From contig JAEWQS010000134.1 in NCBI GenBank assembly GCA_023399095.1, positions 24,399 through 88,398 of the forward strand: DNA of 64,000 nucleotides, in the 5' to 3' direction. The translations under genes were made by a program, and so were the position numbers. Positions 11,641 to 36,166 of this stretch are shown here, one piece after another (within the stretch, counting starts at the first letter, position 1; every line of letters starts with the position of its first letter). Source of the stretch: Bacillota bacterium (GTDB lineage Bacteria > Bacillota > Clostridia > Christensenellales > SZUA-584). The notes below the pieces were generated by a model. That model was not told the origin of the DNA and ran no database searches. It saw only the letters and a list, made by a program, of their open reading frames with translations.

Positions 11641-11689
11641 CTTTATGTCTTAAGAGATACTTAAGAGAGGTTAATTTGCTACTACTATG

Positions 11690-12019: not shown

Positions 12020-12055
12020 TCTATTTCATCACCTCCGTCACGCATTGAAGGGGTA

Positions 12056-12138: not shown

Positions 12139-12155
12139 ACCTGCCGGGAAAGAAA

Positions 12156-12968: not shown

Positions 12969-12991
12969 TAAAATTCTCCTTGATTCTTTTA

Positions 12992-13975: not shown

Positions 13976-14043
13976 AATCATCTCCTTGTATGAAAAGAGC
14001 ACCGGATTGCTCTGATGCCCTTGTCGTTTAATGATCTATTCTT

Positions 14044-21021: not shown

Positions 21022-21045
21022 TTAATTATTCTCCTTTCTGAAAAA

Positions 21046-21076
21046 TGGGTATAAAAAAGACGGCTTGTGTGCCGTC
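21046..21076 (-). terminator. hairpin + T-run terminator fused to conserved RBS module (copy M2, upstream of the giant gene)
   Basis: The minus strand reads GACGGCacacaaGCCGTCTTTTTTATACCCATTTTTCAGAAAGGAG followed by TTG at 21021. The stem is 21059-21064 / 21071-21076. Confidence 0.6.
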
Positions 21077-21157
21077 AACTAATCAATAAAAAATCAATTC
21101 ACATTAGTATAATGTGTTCTTATTATAGTTACAATCATTTAAACCATCCCTGTGGCT

Positions 21158-22348: not shown

Positions 22349-22425
22349 AGTTTAACCCCCTAATAGTTAAAACAATTGTAGGTGAATACATATAAGAGAC
22401 TACTAGTGCTCATAAGATTACTGTA

Positions 22426-23367
22426 TCACATAATTTCAATTCTGCAATTTCGTAAAACAAGATTATGATTAATTGTGCATAGCATATCATATAGTTCTTT
22501 ACCCAAAGAAGGATATTTGCAATTTTTAAAAGTATGGTTATTCCACAATTCTTTCGGTTTTAAATTTCCATCGTCATCTTGTTCAACTAAATCTTGAAAA
22601 TAATTAATATTTATGAATTCGCTCCATGTATTATGGTAATATTGTTTTAAGTAGTATTTCAATCGTATTATTGACTGCGAAATATGATAATCTATACTCT
22701 TCCAGTCCGGACTATCAGAGATTCCGTTAAATAATTGAACTAAAGGCAAGTCATCTGAAGTGTCATTTAGATATGTATAAATAGCACATAATAACAAGTC
22801 ACTAAAATCATATTGTCCATAATTAGAACGTTCAGCGTTGAAAAGTGGTAGGCATGGGAAGAAATTTCCCCTTGTCCCGCTTAATTGAGCCAATATTTCA
22901 AACTGCATTAGTATTGGTCTTGACCATTCTACTTTATTTAAGTTCTCGTCACTAAAAATAACATCAAAATTAAACAGCATTTCTTGATTATAATCACTAT
23001 TTTTCCACTCTGTTTTTTCATACTTTATTTTAGTTGTGAATTCTTTGAGAAAAAAAGTAAAAGTGTGTTTCATAGAATTTAATGTGTCACCAAATATTAC
23101 GTATCTACCCTCTTGTTCAGGTAACAAAATCTGTTTTTTGAGATTGTTTTTATTAAAATTGTCGCTTTTATTTTTAATTTCTCCTTTGTTTAGAAAACCC
23201 CATTTTTCCTTATAGAATTTCATTGCATCTTCTGAAACATCTGTATCGTATTGCTTTTCAAGAGATTCGATATAAGATTCTATATACGCCCTAATACCCG
23301 GATATCTTTGATTGATATTTTTTGCATAACTTTTATTAAACTCTTTATCGATATTTTTAAATAGCAT
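22426..23367 (-). CDS. 313-aa hypothetical protein (cargo, function unknown)
   Basis: This is an AT-rich ORF and the first gene of the cassette. I recognise no catalytic motif. It contains ..SGTRGNFFPCLPLFNAERSNYGQYDFSDLLL.. Confidence 0.5.
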   Translation of the reverse strand: MLFKNIDKEFNKSYAKNINQRYPGIRAYIESYIESLEKQYDTDVSEDAMKFYKEKWGFLNKGEIKNKSDNFNKNNLKKQILLPEQEGRYVIFGDTLNSMKHTFTFFLKEFTTKIKYEKTEWKNSDYNQEMLFNFDVIFSDENLNKVEWSRPILMQFEILAQLSGTRGNFFPCLPLFNAERSNYGQYDFSDLLLCAIYTYLNDTSDDLPLVQLFNGISDSPDWKSIDYHISQSIIRLKYYLKQYYHNTWSEFININYFQDLVEQDDDGNLKPKELWNNHTFKNCKYPSLGKELYDMLCTINHNLVLRNCRIEIM

Positions 23368-23408
23368 AGTAATCCTTCATTATAATCATAAGCCCACAAG
23401 ATATCATC

Positions 23409-23433
23409 GCTTATATTTCGACAATTATATCCA
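23409..23433 (-). promoter_or_regulatory. shared upstream element, copy B (operator/promoter-like) of the 313/396-aa cassette
   Basis: The minus strand reads TGGATATAATTGTCGAAATATAAGC. The core TGTCGAAATATAA (plus 23411-23423) is identical to 7151-7163. A TATAAT lies about 25 nt downstream, and the core is about 44 nt from ATG 23367. Confidence 0.4.
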
Positions 23434-23498
23434 TATTACCTTTATGATGAAGTGTAGCAGAGCCAGAAAATTGTTGACTCTATTACACTCAAAATCTC

Positions 23499-23762
23499 TT
23501 ACATCTTAAGCCAATAGCGATTTGAAAGTCTGCCTCCATCATCAGAGTACCGGGGAGCAATATCCAGCATATCCATGCGCTTTAACCGATAAAGGTTTTT
23601 TCTTATTGCAGAGTGCGAAAGGCCGATATTCTTACCGATCTGCTTCACTGATATGGCGATATTGCGTCCATTCGATTTGTCCAATAGATAGCAATATATG
23701 AGCTTTGCGGCTGCAGGAACAGGAAGCCCCGCGCACAGTTTATATCTTGTCAAGTCATTCAT
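23499..23762 (-). CDS. winged-helix/HTH DNA-binding protein (ICE regulator-like)
   Basis: The protein is 87 aa from ATG 23762, with AAGGAG 6 nt upstream. The sequence is MNDLTRYKLCAGLPVPAAAKLIYCYLLDKSNGRNIAISVKQIGKNIGLSHSAIRKNLYRLKRMDML. I trimmed it from track start 23816. Confidence 0.6.
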   Translation of the reverse strand: MNDLTRYKLCAGLPVPAAAKLIYCYLLDKSNGRNIAISVKQIGKNIGLSHSAIRKNLYRLKRMDMLDIAPRYSDDGGRLSNRYWLKM

Positions 23763-23772
23763 TTTCTTCTCC

Positions 23773-24372
23773 TTATCTTTCCGGTTCATGCTGTGTTTTG
23801 TTCTTCTGTTTTTCACGAGCCTGTTTCAACTTCTCCGCTGCCCAGTCGGGCATATATTCGGGTTTCAGTACGCCCAAAATATCCTCCCTGTTCCAGCGTG
23901 CTTCTTTGCCTGTGTAGAGGTTGACCGTATAGACCGCCCGGCCTCTGGCATTTTCATATGCGCCGAAGCCTCCCGTTGCCAAAACCAGCTGCTTAGCGGC
24001 GGTTCGGTATTCAGGAAGAAGGCATTCTGGGCGGATGACGACAACCTTGTTTTCAATGCTTACGGTATTTTCGTTAGGTTTACAATGCTCATGTGTAAAA
24101 AGGCGGATCGGCGTTTCAACACGCTCCGCTTTAACAGCCTCAAGTTGTGCATTAACGCGCGCAATGAATTCGGTCATCATCTCAAAATAGTCCGTGCTGC
24201 CAACGGCGTTGTCGTACTGATCTATTCCAAAAGGGTTGTCCCATGTGCAATCGCAAACTATGTACGGGTTGTCGGTTTTCGTCTCATCCATCCCAAACAG
24301 TATTTCTTTGTTGCCTATATAAATGGCGTGCTTGATTTCATATCCATCCACCATACGTCCCACAATATCCAT
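23773..24372 (-). CDS. conserved ICE protein of unknown function (199 aa)
   Basis: It is in the ORF track, with RBS AGGAG upstream and a basic C-terminal tail. I cannot assert a family name with confidence. Confidence 0.5.
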   Translation of the reverse strand: MDIVGRMVDGYEIKHAIYIGNKEILFGMDETKTDNPYIVCDCTWDNPFGIDQYDNAVGSTDYFEMMTEFIARVNAQLEAVKAERVETPIRLFTHEHCKPNENTVSIENKVVVIRPECLLPEYRTAAKQLVLATGGFGAYENARGRAVYTVNLYTGKEARWNREDILGVLKPEYMPDWAAEKLKQAREKQKNKTQHEPER

Positions 24373-24397: not shown

Positions 24398-24425
24398 TAA
24401 AAAGGGGCGGACGCGCCGCCCCTTT
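24398..24425 (-). terminator. strong rho-independent terminator ending the Tad operon
   Basis: The minus strand reads AAAGGGGCGGcgcgtCCGCCCCTTTTT. The 10-bp GC-rich stem is 24401-24410 / 24416-24425 and is followed by a T-run. Confidence 0.75.
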
Positions 24426-24437: not shown

Positions 24438-24524
24438 TCATTTCGATCTGCGTTTTTTGATCTGGAAGTATACAATCGCACCCAGTATAAACACACAAAG
24501 CCCAACCATAATCGCGGTTTTCAT
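24438..24524 (-). CDS. 28-aa single-TM micro-ORF downstream of the HD-GYP gene
   Basis: My manual translation is MKTAIMVGLCVFILGAIVYFQIKKRRSK. GGAGG lies 8 nt upstream of ATG 24524, inside the end of the HD-GYP gene. The ORF is followed by the operon terminator. It is below the ORF-track size cut-off. Confidence 0.35.
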   Translation of the reverse strand: MKTAIMVGLCVFILGAIVYFQIKKRRSK

Positions 24525-24528
24525 AAAA

Positions 24529-25059
24529 TTAACCTCCGTTTTCTTCTATAGATATTAAAACCTCAACCCACTCTGGGTCGAATAATATACCGCTGTTCTG
24601 CCACATAAAGTCCAGCACGGCTTCTTTGCTCCATGCCTTTCGGTAGGCGCGGTCATGACATAGCGCATCATACACATCGGCTACCGCAACTACTCGCCCC
24701 GGAAGGCTGATCCCCAGCGCCTTTTTGCCCATATAGCCGGTTCCATCCCAGCGCTCATGATGTTCTAATGCGGCTGACGCAGCATCGGTTATTTCTTTAA
24801 CGTCGGATTCCTTGAGCTTTTCATAGCCGATAACGGTGTGCGTCCGGATGATTTCCCATTCTCCATCCGTAAATGGCGCAGCCTTCTCCAACAACCCCGA
24901 ATGCTGCCGGTCAATGATCTCTTTCCCAACATCGTGCAGGAACCCCGACATAAACCATGAGAATATCTCATTTTCGCTGGCACTTGGATTTTTGCACTGA
25001 ATCAAACGCTTTGTAAGCACCGCAACACCGTTTCGATGCCTCAGATATTCGTCGTTCAT
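24529..25059 (-). CDS. stand-alone HD-GYP domain phosphohydrolase (candidate c-di-GMP phosphodiesterase)
   Basis: The protein is 176 aa with FLHDVGK and HHERWDGTGYMG motifs. It has no sensor domain. Confidence 0.75.
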   Translation of the reverse strand: MNDEYLRHRNGVAVLTKRLIQCKNPSASENEIFSWFMSGFLHDVGKEIIDRQHSGLLEKAAPFTDGEWEIIRTHTVIGYEKLKESDVKEITDAASAALEHHERWDGTGYMGKKALGISLPGRVVAVADVYDALCHDRAYRKAWSKEAVLDFMWQNSGILFDPEWVEVLISIEENGG

Positions 25060-25072
25060 TTCACACCTCGTC

Positions 25073-25507
25073 TCATAGATTCATCAAGGCATACAGATAG
25101 CCCGTGAGTATTGCACCAACCGCACCGAAGGTAAGAAACGGCGCAAAAGGTATCCGGCATTTTAATGTTTTTTTCTTTATCAAAGATTGGATTATGAGTA
25201 CTGCAAGAGCCGGAACCATCAGTGCAAAAGCAATCACCGCATTTAATAGCCCCAAATAGAGGGTGATCACTATAACCAGCTTAACGTCGCCTGCGCCCAT
25301 ACTGCCTCTCAACCATGAAATGAAAAAAGGAATGGCGAAAACCATCCCCGCCGGATATGTCCACCATGTGCCTCCAGCCAGTACGATTAATACCGCGTGC
25401 ATAGTTCCCAGGAATAGCATCAGAATAACCACAAGATTGGAAACAGCGCGGTTTCGCATATCCGTGTAGCTGCACCACATAAGCAGAGCAATAAAAAAAG
25501 CATCCAT
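25073..25507 (-). CDS. tadV: A24-family prepilin peptidase (TadV/CpaA type, no methyltransferase domain)
   Basis: The protein is 144 aa and polytopic. The two catalytic-Asp contexts are SYTDMRNRAVSN and GAGDVKL. Confidence 0.8.
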   Translation of the reverse strand: MDAFFIALLMWCSYTDMRNRAVSNLVVILMLFLGTMHAVLIVLAGGTWWTYPAGMVFAIPFFISWLRGSMGAGDVKLVIVITLYLGLLNAVIAFALMVPALAVLIIQSLIKKKTLKCRIPFAPFLTFGAVGAILTGYLYALMNL

Positions 25508-25537
25508 CAGGACGCCATTAATCAGTTCTATAACTCA

Positions 25538-28108
25538 TCACCTCTTTATCGTCGTAATTCGATCATACATGTCGCCTTCAATCGTCAGCACGTCGGTTTT
25601 GTATTCATACAACTGCCCGACAGGAGACCATGCGTAAAACGTCTGCACCCATGCAGTGTAGATACCATCTGGGTACCACAGCGGAGTATAGTGCAACCGG
25701 CTTCCCGTCGCTGAATACGGATTGATGGCAAGCTGCCATGTAACCGTCATGTCACCGGCTTCGCCTGTTTTTATTTCCAAGCTGTCCCGGATATTCTGCC
25801 AGCCAGCTATCTGCCCATACGCGCTCTCGGGATACCGTACCCAAACCATCTGTGCGCCAACAAGCTTTTCGGGATGATCGTAGTTGGTGGTTAATGTGGT
25901 CGTGCACTGGACGCAAAAGCCAAAGCCCGACTCCATCTGACGTGGCTTGTCGGCATAAGCGATGCGGCTATCTGGTGCAATGGAAAACGTGGTGGTCAAA
26001 CGGGCGTAGAAGGTCTTTGTATTGTAGCTACCGTTTTCCAGTCGAACCTCTTGCCATGAATGATAGGTGGATGAGGCAGCAGTCGGCAGGTTGGTCAATC
26101 CATACGCGTCATAACGCCGCTCCATCTCGCTGCTGTCGGGGTCGGCTACAATACTGGTTGGGACAGCCAGCACCTGAATATTTTTAGTCAGTGTGTTGTT
26201 ACCCTCATCCGTCTCGCTCAGAGCGCCGGTCGGGTCTGCAATTAGTTCCACGGCGTAGCTTCCGGCTTGTGGTACGGTGATTCTGAATACCGCAATGTTG
26301 CTCCCGTTCCCGGCAATGGGAATACTCTCCGTATAGGACGCACCACCAATCGACAGTCGGATGGCGACAGCCGGGACAAGCTGTGCCGTACGATTCCGCA
26401 CAGTGGCCGATACCGTGACCTCCATACCAGCGTACCAATCAGTTATAGTGGAATCCACGATCTCTATATCCGGTCTAAGCGCATTGACTGATATCATCAC
26501 CGTTTTGCTGTTATTGCTCTCATTGCTTTCCTCAACCAGATTACTGGGATCGACCAACGCAGTCATAGTGATGGTCTGTGCGCTGAGTGAAGTAGGCGCT
26601 GTACAAGAAAACGTGACCATCTGGCTGGCTCCCGCGTTCAGTGCGGATACATTGGCTGAAAAAGTTCCAATGCCCGGTATGGTCAGTCGAACCGTCGTGG
26701 CGGATGCCGTGCCGACCCCAATATTTTTTACCGTACCTGTAATGGTCATTGTTTCTCCGGCTTCATATAGCGCTTTATCTCCGGCAAGTGCAGTCACCGT
26801 CAGATCAGGCAACGGAGGAACATATGCTAGAACCTTGAATGATGCCGTGCGGGTATTATTGCCCTCGTTGCTCTCGGTCACAGCACCAGTCGAATCCGCC
26901 GCAGCCGTTATGCTTATGTTTTTATCCGCAGCATACCGGCCAGTCGTATAAGCGAAGGTAACATTTGTGCTTCCACCTGCTGCAAGCGAGGATATATATT
27001 TCGTCTGCGTTGTGAGGTCAGCAGAGGACAGCGCCACATAGAAACCACTCGCGGAACGAAGCCCCTGATTCTGAATCGTTGCCGTCACAGCAACAGTTTC
27101 ATCGGCATTATAGACGGATTTATTTGTGCTTAAGGATGTAACCGTCAGGTCGGCATAAATCTGCGGTGTGCCAAAGGAAACAGAGACTGTCTTAGCTTCG
27201 TTGTATATGGCTGATTTGGCCACGATCACGCGCTGGAGGCTGCTGGAGTTGGGTGCGTAGGCGAACATGTTGCTTCGCAGTCGGTTGTCGCGGCCCGTTG
27301 CAGATATGCTGAATGAACGGTTTGCATTGGCCTCGCTGAGCGGTATCCATATCATCAGCGAATCGCCGGATTGCCCCGTATAGCCAGATACGCTGGAGCC
27401 GGATGGCAATGCGGAGGTGTCGAGCGTATATCCTCCGTTCATATTCGCCAGCCAAACAGACGCGATTCCGACGAAATAGTTGCCGCTGATGGACATGGAC
27501 GGTGCGGAAAGCGAGATGTCATGCGTCATGATGGCCTGCGAACGTGCTCTGATTAGCAGTTCTATAGCAAATTGGAGGACGTCGGTATATCCCGACCTCG
27601 CCCTGATCTTACTGCCGATCTGTCCATTCGCCGCGGCAGTACGCAGCTGCGCATCCGTATAAGAACCAAGATTGGTGAAGTTGTATTGCCCGCTGTCGCC
27701 GTTTTCAGAGAGCCAGAACCGTATGGCGTTAGCAGTGGCATATCGCGCCTCGGTCGCCGTCAAACCGCCCGTTGCATACGGATAACCGTTTTCAAGAATA
27801 ATACGCAACCCCGTCTGAACACGGGATGAATAACTGCTTAGAATGTCTGAGTCGTTGTAGGCAGAATTGTTTGGGCTGCTATTGCGGTGCTGAAGACAGT
27901 AGGCCACCTGCTCCGGCGAGCTTCCGGCAACGTAATGCTCGGGCGTGTCAAGGCTTTTCCAGCCGCTTCCGCCGTTGTAGTCGAACATATCCGTCACACT
28001 GCGAGAGCTGATATTTACGGCCAACGCCGTGGACATGAACAGCATGGATATCATGAGTACAATCAGCGCGGCAGATACGATAATGGCAATCCTTTTTTTC
28101 TTTTTCAC
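25538..28108 (-). CDS. large surface protein with three CARDB repeats (TadG-like pilus-associated adhesin candidate)
   Basis: The protein is 856 aa with an N-terminal signal/anchor MKKKKRIAIIVSAALIVLMISMLF. It has three CARDB-like repeats ending ESNEGNN, ESNESNN and ETDEGNN (aa about 319-646). It has no LPXTG motif. Confidence 0.7.
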   Translation of the reverse strand: MKKKKRIAIIVSAALIVLMISMLFMSTALAVNISSRSVTDMFDYNGGSGWKSLDTPEHYVAGSSPEQVAYCLQHRNSSPNNSAYNDSDILSSYSSRVQTGLRIILENGYPYATGGLTATEARYATANAIRFWLSENGDSGQYNFTNLGSYTDAQLRTAAANGQIGSKIRARSGYTDVLQFAIELLIRARSQAIMTHDISLSAPSMSISGNYFVGIASVWLANMNGGYTLDTSALPSGSSVSGYTGQSGDSLMIWIPLSEANANRSFSISATGRDNRLRSNMFAYAPNSSSLQRVIVAKSAIYNEAKTVSVSFGTPQIYADLTVTSLSTNKSVYNADETVAVTATIQNQGLRSASGFYVALSSADLTTQTKYISSLAAGGSTNVTFAYTTGRYAADKNISITAAADSTGAVTESNEGNNTRTASFKVLAYVPPLPDLTVTALAGDKALYEAGETMTITGTVKNIGVGTASATTVRLTIPGIGTFSANVSALNAGASQMVTFSCTAPTSLSAQTITMTALVDPSNLVEESNESNNSKTVMISVNALRPDIEIVDSTITDWYAGMEVTVSATVRNRTAQLVPAVAIRLSIGGASYTESIPIAGNGSNIAVFRITVPQAGSYAVELIADPTGALSETDEGNNTLTKNIQVLAVPTSIVADPDSSEMERRYDAYGLTNLPTAASSTYHSWQEVRLENGSYNTKTFYARLTTTFSIAPDSRIAYADKPRQMESGFGFCVQCTTTLTTNYDHPEKLVGAQMVWVRYPESAYGQIAGWQNIRDSLEIKTGEAGDMTVTWQLAINPYSATGSRLHYTPLWYPDGIYTAWVQTFYAWSPVGQLYEYKTDVLTIEGDMYDRITTIKR
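26171..27154 (-). repeat. three tandem CARDB-domain coding repeats inside the adhesin gene
   Basis: Each unit is about 105 aa. Units begin with (P)DLTVT / PDIEIV and end with E(S/T)(N/D)E(G/S)NN. They are divergent at the DNA level. Confidence 0.6.
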
Positions 28109-28123
28109 GATATCTCCTTTCCG

Positions 28124-28588
28124 TCACTCAATATACAGGATCGATGAACGCACATTTATGGGGATACGGACTATGCTTAAATCGCCTATGTCCCAAGGGA
28201 GGGGGATAGCCAGCGTTGCACTTATGCTCATCGACTTGCCTTCAACCTCCACCGTCATTTCATCAAGGCTGTAAATGAGTTTTCCACCCTCATATCGGTT
28301 CCAGCGTCCGCCCTCAAGCGTCCAGCCCGCTTCGGTCAGGCATGCAAAGAACGATACCTTAGCGGATTCAGCCGGTACATCCAGCATCAGATCGCGCACG
28401 TTTGCATTAAGCATGCTTTTATCCACGGTGACGGTCGCTGCGCGCTGCACCTCGGTTTCGCAGGCCTGATATTTGGCATACACCGTCACGCCCGCATAGA
28501 CCACCGCGGATAGCGTCATGAGGATGAGAATAAGGAAAACCACCCATATAAGCGCGCTGCCTGTTTTGTCATCCCAAAAACGCTTCAT
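28124..28588 (-). CDS. TadE/TadF-like pseudopilin
   Basis: The protein is 154 aa. The N-terminus MKRFWDDKTGSALIWVVFLILILMTLSAVVYAG has the TadE/G-like hydrophobic helix. Confidence 0.6.
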   Translation of the reverse strand: MKRFWDDKTGSALIWVVFLILILMTLSAVVYAGVTVYAKYQACETEVQRAATVTVDKSMLNANVRDLMLDVPAESAKVSFFACLTEAGWTLEGGRWNRYEGGKLIYSLDEMTVEVEGKSMSISATLAIPLPWDIGDLSIVRIPINVRSSILYIE

Positions 28589-29007
28589 TTCCAGTACACC
28601 TCCGATATGCCGCGCGCGGTGGCCGTAATTTGCACATTGATGACAACCGGGTCACCCAGTGCCGGACGCAGAATGACGATAGGGACGGTCTTTGTTATTG
28701 TGACAGTGAAAGAGTATTTAAGCTGTATTGTTTTTTCTGCTGCGTTCTGCCATTCCGCCTCTACCTCCACGCTGTCTGGCGCAAAGAAGCCATCCGCTGT
28801 AACGGACGCAAGCGTCTCGTCATCAGCTTTGCCATACAGTTCAATGGTTCTGGCCATGTATTTCGCTGTCTGGTTCAACGACTGCTGTGCGGTGAATATG
28901 GGATATAGCGCCAACAGTGAAGCCATAAGAGTAAAGACGATCAGTATGGTGACGGCCACATCGATGTAGCCCTCCGCCGTCTGGTCGCGTATGAATTTTC
29001 GTTTCAT
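28585..29007 (-). CDS. minor pilin / pseudopilin sharing the Flp-type leader
   Basis: The protein is 140 aa from ATG 29007. The sequence MKRKFIRDQTAEGYIDVAVTILIVFTLMASLL has the same AEG[FY][LI]DVA junction as the Flp gene. I trimmed it from track start 29064. Confidence 0.6.
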   Translation of the reverse strand: MKRKFIRDQTAEGYIDVAVTILIVFTLMASLLALYPIFTAQQSLNQTAKYMARTIELYGKADDETLASVTADGFFAPDSVEVEAEWQNAAEKTIQLKYSFTVTITKTVPIVILRPALGDPVVINVQITATARGISEVYWK

Positions 29008-29071
29008 AATTGTCCTCTTTCTGAGATGGTAGGGCTGCCTTGCGGCAGCCCACGCCATACACAATGTTTGT

Positions 29072-29275
29072 TTACGGCAGTACGTTTACGCCGGTGAGTT
29101 CGCCGCTGATCTTGTCAATCAGGTTCTGGAACAGGTCAGGCATCGCAGCGTTCATGATGAGCAGAATAGCCGCGCCAATGACCACGACGATCAATATCTT
29201 CATAGCGACGTCCAGAAAGCCCTCCGCCTTCTTCTCGGAAACAAAACGTTTGACAGTGTTCTTGATTTTCAACAT
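29072..29275 (-). CDS. flp: Flp-family type IVb/IVc pilin
   Basis: The protein is 67 aa: MLKIKNTVKRFVSEKKAEG|FLDVAMKILIVVVIGAAILLIM. It has a short basic leader, a glycine at the predicted cleavage site, and then a hydrophobic helix. Confidence 0.7.
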   Translation of the reverse strand: MLKIKNTVKRFVSEKKAEGFLDVAMKILIVVVIGAAILLIMNAAMPDLFQNLIDKISGELTGVNVLP

Positions 29276-29327
29276 ACAGTGTACTTCCTTTCAATTTTTG
29301 TTTAGTTGGATTGGGGTTTATATGAAA

Positions 29328-29390
29328 AATCCGCTTTCTGCGGGCAGCAAAAACAGCAGCCCTCCTTCCCACGCTGCCATTAAAAGCGGA
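29328..29390 (-). promoter_or_regulatory. long imperfect hairpin + U-run between tadC and flp (attenuator / processing-site candidate)
   Basis: The outer stem ATCCGCTTT/AAAGCGGAT (29328-29336 / 29382-29390) encloses GGCAGC/GCTGCC (29342-29347 / 29372-29377). On the minus strand it is followed by TTTTTCA. Confidence 0.4.
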
Positions 29391-29399
29391 TATAGTGGG

Positions 29400-30278
29400 T
29401 CAGAAGCCCACGGCCTGCAAGTTGTTGATAATGAGGATCACAAGGGGAACCATAAAGAGAAATATGAGCAGTATTGTCAGGATAAACGATGCCGCCTTGA
29501 TGCGGCCAGGGCGTTTCTCCATCAGCCGCCTAAGCGTCTCTCGCTCCTTCGCGCGCATGTCCTGCTCCAGCACCAACAGGCTGGTCCGCTGGTCAACGCC
29601 CTGATGGACGCCACACAGCACCGCGCACAGAGCTGAAAAAGACGGAAGACCCAACCGTGCGTCCATGCTGCACAGTGCCGCCTCCGAATTGCCTGTTTTC
29701 ATGTCGAGTATCAGCCGGTTAAGCTCCATGCCTAGCGCTTTGCCTGCAACTCTCCTGTACTTTTCGAAGAACGATATCAGGTCACGGCTGTCTTGCAACG
29801 AGTAGATGAGTGTTTCCGTCAGGCGTGGCAGCTCCGCTTCAATCTCGCGGCTTAGTGCCTCCACCTTTTTTCGGATGGTCTGCGTTGTTTGAAAATAGGC
29901 CAGTACTGCAATGACTGCGGTCAGCAACGTCAGCCATGGAATACCAAACGGAATGAACAATGCCCCGATAAAAGCCAGCAACAATGACCGTGCCTTCGCT
30001 TGTGAGAGGAAATCCTCTGGCATCTGTGCGATACGCAGCCGCGCGAAGTCCGCATCCAACCGCTTCTTTCTGTACTCGCTCATGGGGAACAGTTTTGAGA
30101 GAAGCCTTGCCAAAGGCAGCAGCACGTCCTGAAACCGCTGCGAAAGATTGCGTTTGCCGTGGATATCTTGTATCACGCGGATGGACTTGCCGGAAGGGAA
30201 AACGAACGCCGCTTGAGCCATCCGGTAAAGCCCCAGCGACAACAAAAAGACGGACAGCGCATAAAGTATGAGCATCAT
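29400..30278 (-). CDS. tadC: TadC (type II secretion system F-family platform protein)
   Basis: The protein is 292 aa and polytopic. It is overlap-coupled to tadB and occupies the TadC position in the operon. Confidence 0.75.
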   Translation of the reverse strand: MMLILYALSVFLLSLGLYRMAQAAFVFPSGKSIRVIQDIHGKRNLSQRFQDVLLPLARLLSKLFPMSEYRKKRLDADFARLRIAQMPEDFLSQAKARSLLLAFIGALFIPFGIPWLTLLTAVIAVLAYFQTTQTIRKKVEALSREIEAELPRLTETLIYSLQDSRDLISFFEKYRRVAGKALGMELNRLILDMKTGNSEAALCSMDARLGLPSFSALCAVLCGVHQGVDQRTSLLVLEQDMRAKERETLRRLMEKRPGRIKAASFILTILLIFLFMVPLVILIINNLQAVGF

Positions 30279-31201
30279 TTTTTCTCACCGCCTCCCACTG
30301 GGCGGTATAACTGCGCCACCCATCCCGCCGTAGCGAGCACAGCGGCCAGCACCACTGCCAGAGTAATTTTTCCGGCCAGCGTGGCGATCAGCATGCTGTA
30401 CCAGTCGGGCATCATTGCGCCCATCAGCGGGATAGCGCCAAACACGATCATGACTGTGACGATATAATCCCCGAGTTGCTTGCGAATCGCGGTGTCGGTT
30501 TCCATCTGCACGCGCCGCATTTCGCCCAACCGTCCCACAATGCCGGGAAGCGCATACCTGAGCTGCCTGTCTCGCTGGCATTGCACCAGCACATCGCACC
30601 AATCGCGCCAGTACCGGTTGTCTATCCGCTCACGCAGACGATGAAGCGCTTTCACCACGTCGGAGTCAACTAGCTGAGTTTCAGCATAGAACTGGCGGAA
30701 CATGCCGTCCAGTGGGGCAACCAGCAGGTGAATGCTGCTTTGCACCGCACCAATCAAATCACCCGACGCCACATAGCTGTTGGTGACCGTGCCCAATGCG
30801 CTCTCCAGCTTTTCGTTCAGGCTCCGTATATAATCGCCGGTGCGGATGCGGATCACGATTAGGGGCGCGCATCCTAGCCCAGCGGCCAGCACCAGCGCTG
30901 CGAGTATGTTGTCAAGCACCAGACCAAAAAGCAGCCCGAGCAGAACCAGTATGGCAGATGCCCACCGGTATGAAGTGATCTGTCCACCCATACCTGTCAC
31001 CGTCAGCATCTCTTTGGCACTGTCCACCGTTGCCTCCAGCTTTCCTTTCGGCTTGCCGGTGATGCGGCGTATGCGTTTCTTCTTATTTCGTTGCCGCTGA
31101 AGCGGCTTTGCAAGCCAGCCAGACATGTCAGACGGACGAACTCTGAATATAAAAAATAGCCCTGACATAAACAGCAGAGCACACAGTATTTGAGTAATCA
31201 T
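30275..31201 (-). CDS. tadB: TadB (T2SS F-family platform protein)
   Basis: The start is set at ATG 31201. It forms an ATGA overlap with the cpaF stop, and GGAGG lies upstream. The track start is 31222. The protein is polytopic. Confidence 0.7.
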   Translation of the reverse strand: MITQILCALLFMSGLFFIFRVRPSDMSGWLAKPLQRQRNKKKRIRRITGKPKGKLEATVDSAKEMLTVTGMGGQITSYRWASAILVLLGLLFGLVLDNILAALVLAAGLGCAPLIVIRIRTGDYIRSLNEKLESALGTVTNSYVASGDLIGAVQSSIHLLVAPLDGMFRQFYAETQLVDSDVVKALHRLRERIDNRYWRDWCDVLVQCQRDRQLRYALPGIVGRLGEMRRVQMETDTAIRKQLGDYIVTVMIVFGAIPLMGAMMPDWYSMLIATLAGKITLAVVLAAVLATAGWVAQLYRPVGGGEKK

Positions 31202-32529
31202 ATTCGCTCCTCCCTGAACCATTCAGTCGCCGCCTTATCCGCACCGTTACCGCGCATGCTTTCAGCGAGCTCGTTCGTGATGCCGTGTTCACGGACATAT
31301 TCGCCCGTTTCGGTCTCGAACCGATAAATTGTATTAGCCTGAACCACACCGTTCTGTATGCCTGTCGCCTCGACGATCTCCATAATACGGCGCGTCCCAT
31401 CCGGCATCTGCTTCTTGAAAACCATGATCGGAAACGCTTCGGCTACAAAGCCCATGAGGATGTGGGTGGATATGTTGGTTCCCGACATCTGGCACATACT
31501 CAATATGCGTCCATAGGCCTTGTGCGCGGAGTTTGCGTGCAGACTGGTCACAACAACGTGCCCTGTGCGGGCGGCTTCCTGAGCCACCATTGCCTCTGCG
31601 CCGCGTATCTCCGCCACCGCGATAATATCTGGTGAAAATCTCAATGCTTTCCGCAGCAGATCGTTCATGTCGATGTTGGCGTTCTGCAAATCGCTTGGCC
31701 GTGTACAGGTGTGGATCACTCGGTTTTGTGCGTTCCCGTCCTTATCCTCGCTGAACAAATCCAGCTCGCGCGTTTCCTCGATTGTGTAAATACGTTTACT
31801 TGCATCAACTGCGTTGAGTAAAAACGCGATGTCCGTCGTTTTACCGCTGCCTGTCTTGCCCGCAATGCCGACTGAAACACCGTGATTGACGCACAGCGTC
31901 AGGAATTCCAGCATCTCCGGTGTCGCTGTTTGCCAGCCGATGATTTGCTCCTTGGACACTTTTGCCATGCGTTGACGGCGAATGGAGAATACGATACCGC
32001 TGCGTCTGTCTGCGACGGGTGGAATCATGGCTGACACGCGGATGCCCTCGGTGATGTAACTGTCCACAATGGGGTTAGTACCGTCCAACACCAGACCGCC
32101 CAGGCGCACCATTTTGCGCAGGGTATCAGCGGCATGCTGGGGAGATAAAAAACGCTCCGGTATTTTGCGCCAGCCGGAGCGCGTCACGATCTCGATATCC
32201 CGCCACGAGTTTCCGTTGATCTCCTCGACTTCCGAATTGGTGATGTACTTATCCAAAAAACCAAAGCCAGCCATGTCACCGTACAGTTTATCGGTCAGTT
32301 GCTGCATGGACAGGCCGCTGATGTGGTGTTGATGGCTGCCGACATATTCGCCGATGAGACGCTTCACCGTTTCCGAAGCATCCTTCTTTGTGATGCTTTG
32401 TGCAAGTGTCTCCGCATGATCTTTTGAAATGTCTACGCGGACCTGCTCCAGCAGGGTTTCATATGCGTCCTTAGCCTGCGGCGCGCTGTGCTGCCGTTCG
32501 TAGGTCAGTTCCTTGAACGTCCGGCTCAT
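31198..32529 (-). CDS. tadA: TadA/CpaF secretion ATPase
   Basis: The protein is 443 aa with Walker A GKTGSGKTT. It also has the Asp box and Walker B region IIAVAEIRGAEA, and a His box TGHVVVTSLHANS. Confidence 0.9.
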   Translation of the reverse strand: MSRTFKELTYERQHSAPQAKDAYETLLEQVRVDISKDHAETLAQSITKKDASETVKRLIGEYVGSHQHHISGLSMQQLTDKLYGDMAGFGFLDKYITNSEVEEINGNSWRDIEIVTRSGWRKIPERFLSPQHAADTLRKMVRLGGLVLDGTNPIVDSYITEGIRVSAMIPPVADRRSGIVFSIRRQRMAKVSKEQIIGWQTATPEMLEFLTLCVNHGVSVGIAGKTGSGKTTDIAFLLNAVDASKRIYTIEETRELDLFSEDKDGNAQNRVIHTCTRPSDLQNANIDMNDLLRKALRFSPDIIAVAEIRGAEAMVAQEAARTGHVVVTSLHANSAHKAYGRILSMCQMSGTNISTHILMGFVAEAFPIMVFKKQMPDGTRRIMEIVEATGIQNGVVQANTIYRFETETGEYVREHGITNELAESMRGNGADKAATEWFREERI

Positions 32530-33245
32530 ATCGCATCAGCTCCTTTCAGTAAAGCTTGGAGCTTCTTTACCTCCCGCAGATACCGCATGGCGGCAGGCGT
32601 CGCGCTATTACTTATACACTCCTGCCGGAATTCCCGTACATAGGGCAGCGCCGCAGCGACTTTTATATCAACTGCCTTTTCCACGCATGACATGTCGTGC
32701 TGTCTGTCTGTCATTGCCATGACAGGCAGGATGCGCTCCTGTGCGTTCATGGTGCTGATGAGCGGCTTGACGCTGTTGAACCAGCAGATTCCCTGCACAT
32801 CGGGCATGAACAGGGTAATCACCTTATCCGCATGGATGAGCGCACCGGGTAAAAAGGGGTCGCTGCGCTGCCCCGACAGGTCGAGGATGACCGTGTCGGC
32901 AAGCTCAATGCACCGCTCCACAAAGTCCTCCGCTGCGTGATCCGCTTCCAACCCGAGCTCATATGATAGATACTCGTCATGGTCAGTCAGCCCAGCATAG
33001 AACAGGTTTTTCAGCTTTGGATGTTGGTGCAGATACGGTGCTGCATCCATCACTCCCATCCCTATGGCTCGACCAAGTGACTTGTCGGAGTCGAACTTCT
33101 GTCCGTCTAGCCGCGTAGGCAGCGTTGGCTGCGTCAGGTCAGAGTCGATGATGACCGTCACGCCTTGTCTGGCAAACAGTATACCCAGCGTATCACAGAG
33201 TGTGCTTTTCCCGATTCCGTCTCGTCCCCAAACGGCGATAACCAT
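32526..33245 (-). CDS. tadZ: TadZ/CpaE-like ParA/MinD-family ATPase
   Basis: The protein is 239 aa with a deviant P-loop VWGRDGIGKST. It sits between cpaB and cpaF. Confidence 0.65.
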   Translation of the reverse strand: MVIAVWGRDGIGKSTLCDTLGILFARQGVTVIIDSDLTQPTLPTRLDGQKFDSDKSLGRAIGMGVMDAAPYLHQHPKLKNLFYAGLTDHDEYLSYELGLEADHAAEDFVERCIELADTVILDLSGQRSDPFLPGALIHADKVITLFMPDVQGICWFNSVKPLISTMNAQERILPVMAMTDRQHDMSCVEKAVDIKVAAALPYVREFRQECISNSATPAAMRYLREVKKLQALLKGADAI

Positions 33246-33246
33246 A

Positions 33247-34014
33247 TCAGTTCACCTCCGCTTCAGCGAGTACAGCGCCAGGTATGTACTGCGGCACACC
33301 CTGACCACGAGCGACGAAAGCAAGATGGATGATGCTCTGATTCTCCAGTTCCGCCAGCAGTACTGCCTGCTCCGGCGCAGCGTAGAACGAGATGGTGACA
33401 GGCAGGGTATTTTTCACGTTCGCGCTGGGCTGAGCTTCAACACTGGCATCTGAACCGTCGCTGGCCGTTACCATGCACACCTCGATGTACTGCAATTCGG
33501 GGTAGATAATTGCGCCAGCCAGATCAACTTCACCCGTTTCTGGTTCTACGCCCAGCGATTGATTGACGGAGCTTTTGGGCAGCGCCATGATCGTTACCAC
33601 ATCGCCGGGCAGCAGATGTCCGGATACTCCCGAGGCTAGTGTGGGCAGCGTGATTGACACCACTGTCTTGCCCTTTGCTGTACCAGCCGGGAAAGAAGAC
33701 TGATTTGCGACAAAGCCTGTGATCTTCTGCACGGTTAAACAATCTCCAGCGTATAGATCGGCAGTAGCATATCTACCCACCGCCAATGCAGTTTCACTGA
33801 TACCACCCTCGATGAGTTTTTCCGGCACTTTCACTGTCTCCAGCATTTCACCGGTGATCTGGGTTCCGGCCTCTATGTTCTGTTTGACACGGACAACGCT
33901 GACATACTCGCCTTGATTGCTGCTCTGCAATGCCGGCAAAGCAAAAAAGACGATGAGTAGTGCTGTGATGATGCAGAGTATCCCGATAACATATCTGTTT
34001 TTGAATAACTTCAT
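33247..34014 (-). CDS. cpaB: CpaB/RcpC-like SAF-domain pilus assembly protein
   Basis: The protein is 255 aa with an N-terminal TM anchor. It has a SAF-like segment VVRVKQNIEAGTQITGEMLETVKVP...AVGRYATADLYAGDCL. Confidence 0.7.
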   Translation of the reverse strand: MKLFKNRYVIGILCIITALLIVFFALPALQSSNQGEYVSVVRVKQNIEAGTQITGEMLETVKVPEKLIEGGISETALAVGRYATADLYAGDCLTVQKITGFVANQSSFPAGTAKGKTVVSITLPTLASGVSGHLLPGDVVTIMALPKSSVNQSLGVEPETGEVDLAGAIIYPELQYIEVCMVTASDGSDASVEAQPSANVKNTLPVTISFYAAPEQAVLLAELENQSIIHLAFVARGQGVPQYIPGAVLAEAEVN

Positions 34015-34175: not shown

Positions 34176-34376
34176 CTAGGTATCAAAAACGATGCATTTT
34201 TCCTGCTTGCATTGTTTACGCCTCGAGTCATAAAACAGGCAATCAGGACAGTTGCGTTTTTGTATTGTCGGGTCGCGCAGTTGATTGGACTCAGATTTCC
34301 GCAGAATTCTAGGCGGTCTTGGAACCTCCGTCATCATGCGCTCAAACGAGCTGAGTTCACCTTCTGTAAACAGCAT
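34176..34376 (-). CDS. cysteine-rich small ICE protein (Cys-rich VLP-like)
   Basis: The protein is 66 aa from ATG 34376, with AAAGGAG upstream. It contains CPDCLFYDSRRKQCKQEKC. I trimmed it from track start 34454. Confidence 0.5.
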   Translation of the reverse strand: MLFTEGELSSFERMMTEVPRPPRILRKSESNQLRDPTIQKRNCPDCLFYDSRRKQCKQEKCIVFDT

Positions 34377-34410
34377 CTTTATAAGTCTCCTTTCTGAAAA
34401 AACGGGCATA

Positions 34411-34442
34411 AAAAAACGCCCTTGCTTCATGAGCTTGGGCGT
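34411..34442 (-). terminator. hairpin + T-run terminator after parB fused to RBS module (copy M3)
   Basis: The minus strand reads ACGCCCaagctcatgaagcaaGGGCGTTTTTTTATGCCCGTTTTTTCAGAAAGGAG followed by ATG at 34376. Confidence 0.5.
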
Positions 34443-34443
34443 C

Positions 34444-35391
34444 TCAGCGTTCATATTCTTTTTCCTGCTTCGTTCGTTCTATTTTTTTGTAGTACAGGTC
34501 GAGCGCTTTGATAATAATATCCTCCTTTTGCTTGGTCGTGTATTCTTTGGGAAAGTATTTTTCGAGTTGGCTTCCTTTGATCGTCAAGTTGTTCTGTTGG
34601 GGTTTTTCCTCACCCATGACCAACTCAATACCGTTACGATCCAGCTTGCCTTCCTGCGCAGCCTGTTTCATCCGTTGCGCCTGTGAAAGCGACGGAGTAC
34701 ATTCCTCCTGCTCAATCACATCCAGCAACTCGGTCTGAAGCTCCTGCGGCAGGTATGAAAGCTCCACAGCGGGATTAAAAGCAATCTTCTTATCGTCCAC
34801 CATCTGGAGCAAGGGTGGAGTGAGTTCAGTAAGGCGGATAAAGCGGTGAATATTGCGGGCACTATCGTTACTCTTTTCGCTTAGCATTTCAACACTCGTC
34901 AACTTCTCGCCAACTTGGCGAGAAGTTAGGTCTGTTCGTTTTCCTTGGCGATTTAGCGCCTCCAACTTCATCCTATATGCCTTGGCCTTTTCACTGAATG
35001 TAATTGTTTCGCGCTGGATGTTACCGTCCACCACCAATATTGTAGCTGCGTCGTCGTCAATCTCTCTGACAATAAGGGGAAGGGTATCACGACCTGCCAG
35101 TGTACTGGCCAGTTTGCGCCGATGTCCCGAGAGTAGTTCATATCCACCTTCTGCCCGTGGCCGAGCAAGGCAGGGCGTATGGACGCCGATCCGCTGGATA
35201 CTCTCCACCATATCCATGAGCTCCGCATCCTTCCGAACGTGATAGGGGTTTTTTGCGAAGTCAAATATCTCTGAAATAGGCACGCTTAAGACTTGTTCGC
35301 CCTGTTGCTGCCGCTCCGCCTGTCGGCTTTCCTCGCTGCTAAACAAGTCATCGACTGATGTCAGCTTCTTGTTTCTCACGTTGCTTGCCAC
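34444..35391 (-). CDS. parB: ParB/Spo0J-family partition protein
   Basis: The protein is 315 aa with the ParB box GGYELLSGHRRKLAS and an HTH region. It overlaps the end of parA. Confidence 0.85.
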   Translation of the reverse strand: MASNVRNKKLTSVDDLFSSEESRQAERQQQGEQVLSVPISEIFDFAKNPYHVRKDAELMDMVESIQRIGVHTPCLARPRAEGGYELLSGHRRKLASTLAGRDTLPLIVREIDDDAATILVVDGNIQRETITFSEKAKAYRMKLEALNRQGKRTDLTSRQVGEKLTSVEMLSEKSNDSARNIHRFIRLTELTPPLLQMVDDKKIAFNPAVELSYLPQELQTELLDVIEQEECTPSLSQAQRMKQAAQEGKLDRNGIELVMGEEKPQQNNLTIKGSQLEKYFPKEYTTKQKEDIIIKALDLYYKKIERTKQEKEYER

Positions 35392-36166
35392 CGTTTAATA
35401 CCTCCTTCGTCAGAGCTTCATATGCCGCAGCCGCCTTACCATGCCCGTCATATGCGTAAATACTTTTTCCTTCCGCGCTCGTTTCTGCCGCTTTGATGGC
35501 AAGGGGTATTTCCGTTTTGAATACGCGAAGCTTGTCCCCGTAATCCCGCCGCAGTACGAAGGAGATGTCCTTGGCGAAATTAGTTCGAGTGTCCACCATA
35601 GTCAGTAGCGCGCCTTCTATCTTCAAGTTGGGGTTAATGTTCTTTTTGATGCGATTGATAGTCTGCAAAAGCTGTGACATGCCCTTCGCGGGCAGATAGT
35701 GCGCCTGTACAGGGATAATGACGCTATCGGCAGCAACAAGCGCGTTGACGGTGATCATTCCAAGCGAGGGCATACAGTCGATGAGAATAAAGTCGTAATC
35801 TTTCTTCACTCCGTTGAGATAGTTACGCAGCACGATCTCACGGCTCATGGTATTTACTAACGATACTTCCATTGCGGACAGCTCGATGTTGGCCGGCATG
35901 AGATCAATGCCTTCTGCATGGTGAAGAATGCCCTCGTTGTGTTCAAAGGGCTCGTCCATGATGATCTTGGTCATGATGGTGGCGAGTGTAACAGACAGTT
36001 TGTCCGGCTCGTTCCAACCAAGGCTGTCCGTAAGGTTGCCCTGTGCGTCGGCATCTACTAGCAACACCTTTTTACCTTGCCGCGCTAACCCTATGCCGAG
36101 GTTAACGGCGGTTGTCGTTTTCCCTACGCCGCCTTTTTGGTTGGCGAGGGCGATAACTTTTGTCAT
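35348..36166 (-). CDS. parA: ParA/Soj-family ATPase
   Basis: The protein is 272 aa with the deviant Walker A NQKGGVGKTTT. It also has LLVDADAQGN and ILIDCMPSLG. Confidence 0.9.
   Translation of the reverse strand: MTKVIALANQKGGVGKTTTAVNLGIGLARQGKKVLLVDADAQGNLTDSLGWNEPDKLSVTLATIMTKIIMDEPFEHNEGILHHAEGIDLMPANIELSAMEVSLVNTMSREIVLRNYLNGVKKDYDFILIDCMPSLGMITVNALVAADSVIIPVQAHYLPAKGMSQLLQTINRIKKNINPNLKIEGALLTMVDTRTNFAKDISFVLRRDYGDKLRVFKTEIPLAIKAAETSAEGKSIYAYDGHGKAAAAYEALTKEVLNGGKQREKQEADISR

Follow-up and report, generated by a model that had tools for sequence, protein, structure and literature searches.

A secretin-less Tad-type operon as a probable backbone module of a conjugative element family in Clostridia and Christensenellales

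What does an integrative and conjugative element (ICE) of the Bacillota do with a pilus operon of the Tad type? The question is raised by a 64,000-nucleotide stretch of Bacillota DNA (contig JAEWQS010000134.1 of assembly GCA_023399095.1, positions 24,399 to 88,398; hereafter the window), which contains part of an ICE and, at 24438-34014, the operon in question. An earlier note, made from the sequence alone, had described this region as a complete secretin-less Tad/Flp pilus operon with an adhesin gene, belonging to the element. The analysis reported here supports the description of 24438-34014 as a complete secretin-less Tad-type operon that is part of the mobile element. It further indicates that the operon is, with high probability, a backbone module of a Clostridia/Christensenellales ICE family rather than variable cargo, and a functional Tad-type pilus module of the ICE. 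As the main job of this module we favour, by analogy and at a probability of roughly 0.45, the contact between donor and recipient and the stabilisation of the mating pair.

Twelve open reading frames (ORFs), all on the minus strand, run from 34014 down to 24438 and form a tightly packed single operon, as the earlier note had proposed. Neighbouring genes overlap by 4 nucleotides or lie 1-30 nucleotides apart, with two exceptions: about 60 nucleotides precede the probable start of the first minor pilin, and 124 nucleotides precede the pilin gene. At the operon end, a terminator-like hairpin is followed by a T-run (24409-24421, minus strand). A promoter scan found sites no more numerous than in shuffled sequence, and there is no secretin gene in the operon. 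The arrangement is not a chance one, because the same gene order with full-length ORFs occurs in about 35-40 independent loci. The assignment of the operon to the element also holds: parA and parB lie directly upstream, transfer genes lie downstream on the same strand, and the element ends at the 3' end of the transfer-messenger RNA (tmRNA) gene.

The relatives on which this comparison rests were sampled by similarity to TadA, the secretion ATPase of the operon; metagenome loci anchored on the coupling protein span 10 kb, and the operon is 21 kb away from that gene. A large protein collection held 2480 TadA homologues, those listed being 70-100% identical, and a genome scan at species level yielded 57 loci, almost all of which came from Clostridia, Christensenellales or metagenome-assembled genomes (MAGs) labelled 'Bacillota'. 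In about 35-40 of the 57 loci, belonging to different species, the block from parA and parB through cpaB to the peptidase gene is complete, in the same order and with full-length ORFs, and only two loci (L037 and L055) look degraded. When compared with six relatives, every operon gene had a ratio of nonsynonymous to synonymous substitution rates (dN/dS) of 0.02-0.27, with dS about 1 or saturated. The possibility that the Tad genes are pseudogenised or absent in most relatives, which would have spoken against a role in the element, was not borne out: they are intact and under purifying selection in nearly all the TadA-sampled relatives. Some genomes have three divergent copies, each with its own Tad set; the 2.47-Mb contig JAXGMA010000001.1 has three, with TadA identities of 86, 75 and 55%. 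In more distant relatives the Tad block adjoins conjugation genes in altered arrangements. In L017, L020 and L021 the block is directly followed by a coupling protein; L051 and L053 have VirB4-like or coupling-protein genes, and L036, L038 and L040 have primase-like ones.

This pattern bears directly on a different reading, that the operon is transferable cargo which the element only conveys, and which benefits the host cell by helping it to attach to a surface or a host, to aggregate or to form biofilms. Tad pili canonically serve adhesion, the adhesin of the operon has the typical build of a 'periscope' surface protein, its CARDB repeats differing in number, and the HD-GYP-like gene near the operon end would be compatible with biofilm control of the cyclic di-GMP type. 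Furthermore, Flp-pilus plasmids of the Gram-positive Cutibacterium acnes have been discussed as colonisation factors (PMC5696575). However, cargo normally varies, while the Tad module is fixed beside parAB across relatives that are saturated at synonymous sites, is kept by each of several co-resident elements in one genome, and recurs beside conjugation genes on unrelated plasmid backbones. We consider the cargo reading the main alternative, but a less likely one.

The end of the element that carries parAB and the Tad operon is also the end next to the integration site. A tRNA gene occupies the position and orientation of the window's tmRNA gene in 10 of 34 scanned relatives, and six different tRNAs are involved. 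This suggests that the element family has diversified its integration specificity, with the parAB-Tad end always proximal to the RNA gene. The element-adjacent tRNAs include Arg-CCT (L003, L002 and L042), Ser-GGA (L009 and L032), Thr-GGT (L010), Ser-CGA (L023), Met (L036) and Ser-GCT (L038). Among the relatives, two loci from differently labelled genomes, a Peptococcaceae MAG (L020:4828-21302) and an Anaerofustis MAG (L021:4831-21320), are 95.5% identical in nucleotide sequence over 16.5 kb starting just upstream of parA, which reflects either a recent transfer between families or a binning error.

The first gene of the operon (33247-34014) encodes a CpaB/RcpC-like pilus assembly protein of 255 aa with an N-terminal transmembrane helix. 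It scored above the Pfam cut-offs for SAF (33.5 bits, cut-off 21) and RcpC (30.7 bits, cut-off 28.8) and below the cut-off of the NCBIfam CpaB model TIGR03177 (E 6.6e-15), and it is full length in relatives. The second gene (32526-33245) encodes a TadZ/CpaE-like ATPase of the ParA family, 239 aa long and consisting of the ATPase domain only. Its matches in Pfam and NCBIfam were all below threshold (ParA, 18.4 bits; CpaE_hom_Actino, 20.5 bits; MinD), and the assignment is based on the P-loop GRDGIGKST and on the position, which is kept in relatives together with the length. The third gene (31198-32529) encodes the TadA/CpaF-type secretion ATPase of 443 aa, with a T2SSE domain (99.7 bits in Pfam), the Walker A motif GKTGSGKTT and a dN/dS of 0.05-0.08.

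Among the NCBIfam models, the TadA family TIGR03819 matched this ATPase best (E 3e-42), along with FlaI and VirB11, and all scores were below the cut-offs. The protein is about equally close to the three models, and the VirB11 E-value of 3e-38 nearly equals that of TadA. Could the protein then be a VirB11-type traffic ATPase of the element's own type IV secretion system (T4SS), with its neighbours as T4SS accessory proteins and no separate filament? The plasmids that carry cognate clusters are typed as MPF_T by MOB-suite, and the corresponding genes of pAW63 and of the Listeria element LGI1 have been annotated in the same way (PMC1196294, PMC2834635). On the other hand, VirB11 does not need what is encoded in the same operon here, namely CpaB, a TadZ-like protein, two paralogues with a GspF fold, a prepilin peptidase and three prepilin-type leaders, and the T4SS genes follow the coupling protein, about 21 kb from the operon. 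We regard this explanation as very improbable.

The next two genes encode membrane proteins that the earlier note had called TadB and TadC. The TadB-like ORF (30275-31222) has 315 codons, and its true start is probably the ATG at 31201, because this start gives the 4-nucleotide overlap with the tadA stop codon and a protein of 308 aa as in relatives, most of which have 300-309 aa. The TadC-like protein (29400-30278) has 292 aa. Neither protein matched a Pfam or NCBIfam family, and T2SSF was never matched when 29 TadB-like and 27 TadC-like homologues were scanned individually against Pfam (E<=1); likewise, a search of the PDB sequences with a profile from the TadC alignment returned nothing meaningful. 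Like TadB and TadC, the two proteins are paralogues of each other (hhalign probability 94.9%, E 4e-8). The AlphaFold (AF2) model of the TadC-like protein had a predicted local distance difference test score (pLDDT) of 72.8 and few compact PDB matches, the relevant ones being cytoplasmic domains of the GspF family: OutF (5nbg_A; TM-score to the target 0.73, root mean square deviation 2.7 A over 107 columns, probability 1.00, Foldseek E 0.44) and EpsF (2vma_B; TM-score 0.65, Foldseek E 1.8). We therefore accept the two proteins as TadB/TadC-type platform proteins by modelled structure and context, not by family membership; the earlier identification is supported by paralogy and fold similarity, with no match to a T2SSF model.

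A 67-aa precursor encoded at 29072-29275 is the predicted major pilin. It belongs to DUF6133 (30.6 bits, cut-off 27), did not match Pfam Flp_Fap and lacks the G/XXXXEY motif. Cleavage is predicted after Gly20 (KKAEG|FLDVAMK), which would give a mature peptide of about 47 aa. The size, the leader and the hydrophobic helix are Flp-like, and the junction G|FLDVAMK has Asp at +3 and no Glu-Tyr. The pilin is near-invariant in 35 homologues (dN/dS 0.02-0.09). What had been called an Flp pilin is thus a 67-aa pilin with a prepilin leader, but of the family DUF6133 and with the atypical junction G|F-L-D.

Two minor pilin genes follow. Minor pilin 1 (28585-29064; DUF4320, 75.6 bits) probably starts at the ATG at 29010 and would then have 141 aa; its leader QTAEG|YIDVAV is aligned in 43 homologues, and its N-terminus is related to that of the pilin (hhalign probability 93.9%). 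The shared leader junction AEG|[FY][LI]DVA noticed earlier is therefore real, and it is conserved in the homologues of both proteins. Minor pilin 2 (28124-28588), of 154 aa and with the TadE-like leader DDKTG|SALIW, is homologous to minor pilin 1 along its whole length (hhalign probability 93.8%) and is conserved in 34 homologues; it had no Pfam match, and TadE was matched by neither minor pilin. In both, a Gly-containing leader is followed by a hydrophobic helix. The prepilin peptidase (25073-25507) is a TadV-type protein of 144 aa with a Peptidase_A24 domain (42 bits) and no methyltransferase domain, and both catalytic Asp motifs are visible (Asp16 in YTDMRNR and Asp74 in GAGDVK). Of the Pfam models by which the earlier note had proposed to confirm the operon, T2SSE, SAF, CARDB and Peptidase_A24 thus have a match, and T2SSF for TadB/TadC, Flp_Fap for the pilin and TadE for the minor pilins have none.

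Between minor pilin 2 and the peptidase lies the gene for a secreted adhesin of 856 aa (25538-28108), which matched CARDB three times (164.7 bits) and the thioester domain TED once (27.2 bits). From the N-terminus, a Sec-type signal peptide ending TALA|VN is followed by a thioester-domain homologue (residues ~30-310), three CARDB repeats (~320-650) and a conserved C-terminal domain (~655-856). The C-terminus, ...GDMYDRITTIKR, has neither an LPXTG motif nor a transmembrane segment. The length, the three CARDB repeats and the missing LPXTG agree with the earlier note, which had overlooked the thioester-domain homologue.

The TED match (cut-off 22 bits) covers positions 1-67 of the 102 positions of the Pfam profile. 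The motif of the thioester Cys, Y70-C71-L-Q, is invariant in 37 aligned sequences. The segment aligned to TQxA(I/V)W reads T125-A126-N127-A128-I-R-F-W, so that the position of the thioester Gln is Ala126, which is nearly invariant among close homologues (36 aligned). An exhaustive search with residues 30-330 gave 217 clusters of proteins from 105 to 3287 aa, with the domain near the N-terminus in most. Distant homologues of the head have the canonical motif Gln: P0507 (T-Q-A-A-I-W), P0503 (T-Q-N-A) and P0492 (T-Q-A-A), all with SpaA repeats and with Pfam TED scores of 46, 39.5 and 20.7 bits, the last being below that of the adhesin. From these alignments the head is a genuine thioester-domain homologue in which the thioester Gln was lost and the Cys was kept. 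A canonical Cys-Gln thioester in the adhesin head is unsupported, and covalent binding of a target should not be assumed, because the Gln is missing. The residue after the lost Gln is an invariant Asn127 (adhesin residues 117-128, window 27725-27760); in the set compared (P0507, P0503, P0492, P0395 and P0476), a few head relatives have Gln at the Asn127 position (T-A-Q-A, T-T-Q-A). In the TED/TIE adhesins, which the head resembles in passing Pfam TED and in keeping the Y-C-[LIV]-[QE] and ...A-[IV]-R-x-W contexts, the Gln is present, the protein carries LPXTG, and SpaA/CnaB domains make up the stalk in place of CARDB.

The AF2 model of the adhesin had a pLDDT of 85-94 for residues 30-560 and of 63-85 for residues 560-650, and a low one for residues 650-856. 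Foldseek with the whole chain found only tandem Ig/MG arrays (complement C3/C4, alpha-2-macroglobulin), which are uninformative on the N-terminal domain, and single-sequence and profile searches of that domain against PDB sequences gave no match. Family members range from 849 to 1460 aa by insertion of CARDB units of about 110 aa, with 3 to ~9 repeats in relatives. A swappable, PilV-like specificity domain at the C-terminus can be ruled out: the CARDB insertions explain why BLAST covered only 63% of the query in many relatives, and the N-terminal domain is conserved as well as the C-terminal one. The latter, about 200 aa long (window 25538-26146), is rich in invariant Trp, Tyr and acidic residues, and its AlphaFold confidence is very low. 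It had no Pfam match in our scan, and the database precomputes PF26615 (DUF8195) for the family. We consider it a candidate pilus-docking or ligand-binding domain.

The gene for this Sec-exported adhesin always stands directly after the minor pilin genes, and the neighbourhood raises the possibility of a short pseudopilus, that is, a piston as in the type II secretion system (T2SS) or a wall-spanning scaffold that moves the adhesin or components of the T4SS through the peptidoglycan or positions them there. Precedents are the Com and T2SS pseudopili, whose type IV filament machines make no long fibres. In the operon, the two minor pilin genes and the adhesin gene are always adjacent, and the adhesin has a Sec signal and no wall anchor. 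Set against this, the pilin resembles the typical fibre-forming Flp pilins in being small and highly conserved, the presence of CpaB and TadZ marks Tad pili and not T2SS, and no evidence links export of the adhesin to the machine. A pseudopilus is in our view improbable.

At the tail of the operon, between the peptidase gene and the last ORF, lies a gene for a stand-alone HD-GYP-like protein of 176 aa (24529-25059; HD_5, 63.9 bits). Its motifs are LHDVGK and HHERWDGTGYM, with Met in place of the GYP Pro, and its match to the HD-GYP part of the cyclic di-GMP phosphodiesterase family NF053512 (E 1e-17) was far below the cut-off. The gene is absent from most relatives; among the close ones only L001 and L004, both on the same Christensenellaceae chromosome, have it. 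The protein is 38% identical to an HD protein within the Tad-like cluster of the Thermoanaerobacterium plasmid pMU3262. The association of the HD gene with the Tad cluster is recurrent but not core, since the pMU3262 homologue also sits in the cluster, yet few close relatives carry the gene. The HD-GYP protein of the earlier note is thus an HD_5 protein at the operon end, but an accessory insertion rather than a core component, and its GYP reads GYM.

The last ORF (24438-24524) encodes a 28-aa protein with a single transmembrane segment. In all 10 relatives in which the gene order was checked, the micro-ORF is directly 3' of the peptidase gene (those listed are L003, L007, L009, L015, L028, L036, L040, L042 and L050). 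It is probably a real gene, because its dN/dS of 0.13-0.27 indicates purifying selection, and the micro-protein may be a small subunit or a partner of the peptidase.

Taken together, the operon is best explained as encoding a pilus machine of the Tad type (type IVc) in a form suited to an envelope with one membrane. It shares with the canonical Tad/Flp systems (type IVc; Aggregatibacter tad, Caulobacter cpa) the CpaB/RcpC and TadA/CpaF proteins, a small pilin, a TadV-type peptidase and a single ATPase, it has probable counterparts of TadZ/CpaE, of the TadB/TadC pair and of the TadE/F minor pilins, and its secretin-less layout is that expected in monoderms. The canonical Tad/Flp pili also include that of Bifidobacterium breve tad. 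Unlike in the canonical systems, the platform proteins and the pilin here fall below the Pfam T2SSF and Flp_Fap models, the pilin lacks G/XXXXEY, and TadZ has no N-terminal receiver-like domain. The present operon also includes a large secreted adhesin and a 28-aa peptide, and it is a backbone module of an element rather than a chromosomal island. A further Tad locus, in the uncultured Clostridia clade TANB77, is chromosomal as well; there the effect of the pilin on immunotherapy has been studied (PMC11680825).

Closer counterparts are found on mobile elements. Cognate clusters with cpaB, an AAA ATPase, the secretion ATPase, two membrane proteins, small pilins where annotated, and DUF4320 are present on four plasmids: pCd5_2 of C. 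difficile, an Oscillospiraceae plasmid, a B. cereus plasmid and pMU3262 of Thermoanaerobacterium. In pCd5_2 the cluster adjoins VirD4-like and pLS20_p028-family genes. The plasmid pAW63, which is proven to be conjugative, encodes in its tra region a 'VirB11' of 444 aa, after which come two proteins of 250-280 aa and several small ORFs (PMC1196294). In Listeria LGI1, Gilmour et al. described virB4, virD4, virB11 and cpa/tad genes together with an adhesin; they pointed to regions of the same kind in C. kluyveri, C. bolteae and D. hafniense, and they compared LGI1 with the system that Grynberg et al. had proposed for pXO1 (PMC2834635). Imam et al. set the same clostridial tad-like loci apart as divergent and could recognise no prepilin in them (PMC3244431); here a pilin can be identified.

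The present operon has in common with these 'VirB11' clusters of Firmicutes mobile elements the core order of cpaB, ParA-like ATPase, T2SSE ATPase, two membrane proteins of about 300 aa, small pilin-like ORFs and DUF4320, and like them it is part of a mobile element, next to genes of the VirD4/VirB4 type and the gene of a surface protein; for LGI1 and pXO1 the likeness is taken from the published descriptions, not from an alignment. The operon is therefore an added member of a kind of cluster described between 2005 and 2011 in pXO1, pAW63 and LGI1. The cognate plasmid copies differ from it considerably. Their TadA proteins are only 28-40% identical to that of the window, and their small pilin-like proteins have leader variants of their own, G|ALTLLEW (classical Flp-like) in Thermoanaerobacterium and G|MLIAL in B. 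cereus as against G|F-L-D here. In place of the TED-like head with CARDB, the B. cereus plasmid has a WxL/DUF916 protein and the C. difficile plasmid a protein with cell-wall-binding repeats.

How would such a machine serve the element? The A24 peptidase would cleave the three pilin-like precursors at the conserved Gly, and the T2SSE ATPase, the two platform paralogues, the ParA-like TadZ and CpaB would polymerise the pilin of about 47 aa into a filament. This filament may present the adhesin or cooperate with it. Extending, and perhaps also retracting under its single ATPase, it could capture and hold recipient cells, so that the element's own T4SS of the Gram-positive type could form the mating junction. 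Where present, the HD-GYP-like protein might tune expression or activity through a cyclic-nucleotide signal. The role would be that of the IncI thin type IV pilus with its PilV adhesins. Functional precedents exist in the thin pilus of IncI/TP114, which carries PilV adhesins, and in the PAPI-1 pilus (PMC9045228, PMC12857230), and in Caulobacter a single Tad ATPase drives both extension and retraction (PMC6920026).

We favour donor-recipient contact because of the backbone-like conservation of the module, its retention by each co-resident element, and its persistent linkage with conjugation genes across unrelated replicons. On this reading, the module would resemble the IncI thin type IVb pilus (R64, TP114) and the PAPI-1 pilus in being an element-encoded filament that stands beside a T4SS, comes with an adhesin and brings donor and recipient together (PMC9045228, PMC12857230). 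Those pili are, in contrast, of type IVb and belong to diderms with a secretin, and homology with them is shown at the superfamily level only. Furthermore, the specificity of the IncI PilV comes from a shufflon, whereas the adhesin here varies in the number of repeats and not in its terminal domains. The aggregation substance of the PrgB type and other LPXTG adhesins are likewise element-encoded surface proteins that have been proposed to join donor and recipient (PMC12857230); unlike these, the adhesin here has no polymer-adhesin domain and no sortase anchor, and it is genetically coupled to a filament machine.

Several points weigh against donor-recipient contact as the main job. Tad loci elsewhere are classic, horizontally spread cargo for adhesion and biofilm formation. 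The identity of the platform proteins depends on paralogy and on a modest fold match (the OutF match at Foldseek E 0.44 and TM-score 0.73), and the adhesin has neither LPXTG nor a prepilin leader by which it might attach to the filament. A sample anchored on TadA cannot show what share of the related backbones is without a Tad module, and the VirB4 and integrase genes of this element fall outside the window. According to a review of December 2025, Gram-positive conjugation systems encode no conjugative pili and rely on adhesins, and the systems studied function without pili (PMC12857230). In our literature searches, no Tad-like pilus carried by an ICE or plasmid of Bacillota turned out to have been studied functionally, and no paper on DUF4320 or DUF6133 came up. 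This agrees with the statement of the earlier note that no experimental characterisation was known. Clusters of an equivalent make-up had, however, been reported before, in pXO1, pAW63/pXO2, Listeria LGI1 and several Clostridia (PMC1196294, PMC2834635, PMC3244431).

It is also conceivable that the filament works on the recipient side, as a competence-like pilus for DNA uptake, and not in donor adhesion. Tad-type pili have reportedly been linked to DNA uptake in Liberibacter, and a similar link is said to exist in Micrococcus luteus. Neither the operon nor its flanks contain genes of the ComEA, ComEC or DprA type, however; the uptake of competing DNA would be of little gain to the element, and a dedicated large adhesin suggests binding to a cell or a surface. 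We give this explanation hardly any weight.

If the favoured reading of donor-recipient contact is extended beyond this element, a wide class of Bacillota conjugative elements (Clostridia/Christensenellales ICEs, plasmids of C. difficile, the B. cereus group and Thermoanaerobacterium, and Listeria LGI1) may encode a Tad-type mating pilus of their own, with a DUF6133 pilin, a DUF4320 minor pilin and a lineage-specific adhesin. We put this forward as a tentative proposal. If it is true, the textbook rule of no pili in Gram-positive conjugation is wrong for that class, and a Gln-less head with the invariant Cys71 and Asn127 might bind recipients by non-canonical chemistry. If the module serves transfer, the view of Gram-positive conjugation as 'adhesins only, no pili' needs revision (PMC12857230), and the module could become a point of attack against the spread of genes in anaerobic communities. 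Were it no more than a colonisation factor, it would still be a self-transmissible adhesion organelle moving between families, as the 95.5% identity between the differently labelled MAGs illustrates.

The question of a mating pilus is directly testable in cultivable carriers such as the C. difficile plasmids, the B. cereus-group plasmids and Listeria LGI1, since a conserved module under purifying selection travels with conjugation genes on many Bacillota ICEs and plasmids, each co-resident element having its own copy. Given LGI1 or pXO1, the cluster itself is unsurprising, and its breadth and conservation are the added contribution. The analysis adds to the parts list a candidate pilin with its cleavage motif, the paralogous platform pair, the Gln-less thioester-like CARDB adhesin, and the coupled peptidase and micro-peptide.

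The rest of the element surrounds the operon on the minus strand. Upstream are parA (35348-36166; AAA_31, 206 bits) and parB (34444-35391; ParB_N, 50.7 bits), and between parB and cpaB lies a small Cys-rich ORF (34176-34454) with a C-terminal CxxC...C...C motif. It corresponds to a protein of 57-101 aa in many relatives (about 72% coverage), has no family match and could be a regulator of the Tad operon. From parA toward the tmRNA gene follow an ORF of unknown function, a candidate defence protein of 338 aa identified by PADLOC as PDC-S30 (36910-37926; E 6e-97, 322 bits), another small ORF and the 3' end of the tmRNA gene. The PDC-S30 protein is thus inside the ICE, between parA and the tmRNA end, and has an 89% homologue in L003. 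The tmRNA gene (39155-39515, minus strand) was found by ARAGORN and Rfam (162 bits), and the ICE abuts its 3' end; beyond it are the housekeeping genes smpB, RNase R and secG.

Downstream of the operon and on the same strand are an HTH gene, a gene for a 2325-aa SNF2 protein, and the genes for Toprim/DUF3991 (primase-like), YodL, NikA/MobC, relaxase, DUF3801, an ArdC-like protein, the coupling protein and a VirB2-like protein. The DNA-processing and transfer block, including ArdC-like, DUF3801 and YodL, occupies 955-14002. Within it lie Toprim/DUF3991 (12992-14002), NikA/MobC (11690-12019), the MobA/VirD2 relaxase (7196-8629; PF03432, 138 bits), the VirD4-type coupling protein (1263-3047; T4SS-DNA_transf 193.7 bits, with TraG-D_C) and the TrbC/VirB2-like protein (955-1263), which is 81% identical to a protein of the metagenomic relative L063 that passes Pfam TrbC/VIRB2. 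The VirB2-like gene directly follows that of the coupling protein, and the element has a VirB2-like protein besides the Tad pilin. In L063, the coupling protein (89% identical) is followed by the VirB2-like gene, PrgI, a 781-aa VirB4-like ATPase and an NlpC/P60 hydrolase.

The ORFs scanned at positions 1-39155 include no recombinase, and no second copy of the tmRNA 3' end is present in the 64,000-nucleotide window. The element is longer than 39 kb and continues leftward past the window, which ends just after the VirB2-like gene; the integrase and the second attachment site (att) copy may lie beyond this left edge. The assignment as an ICE is well supported, and incomplete for this copy.

Two blocks inside the ICE, at 4000-8000 and 21000-24000, have a low GC content (0.35-0.39, compared with about 0.5 elsewhere) and are possibly cargo acquired later. 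Most of the relaxase gene falls in the former, together with a Mur-ligase-like protein (5762-7102) and an alpha/beta hydrolase (5052-5765); the latter has two ORFs of 313 and 396 aa with no family match. Outside the ICE, a chromosomal ORF of 811 aa that matched neither Pfam nor PADLOC (50768-53203, minus strand) sits in a stretch of very low GC content (0.34).

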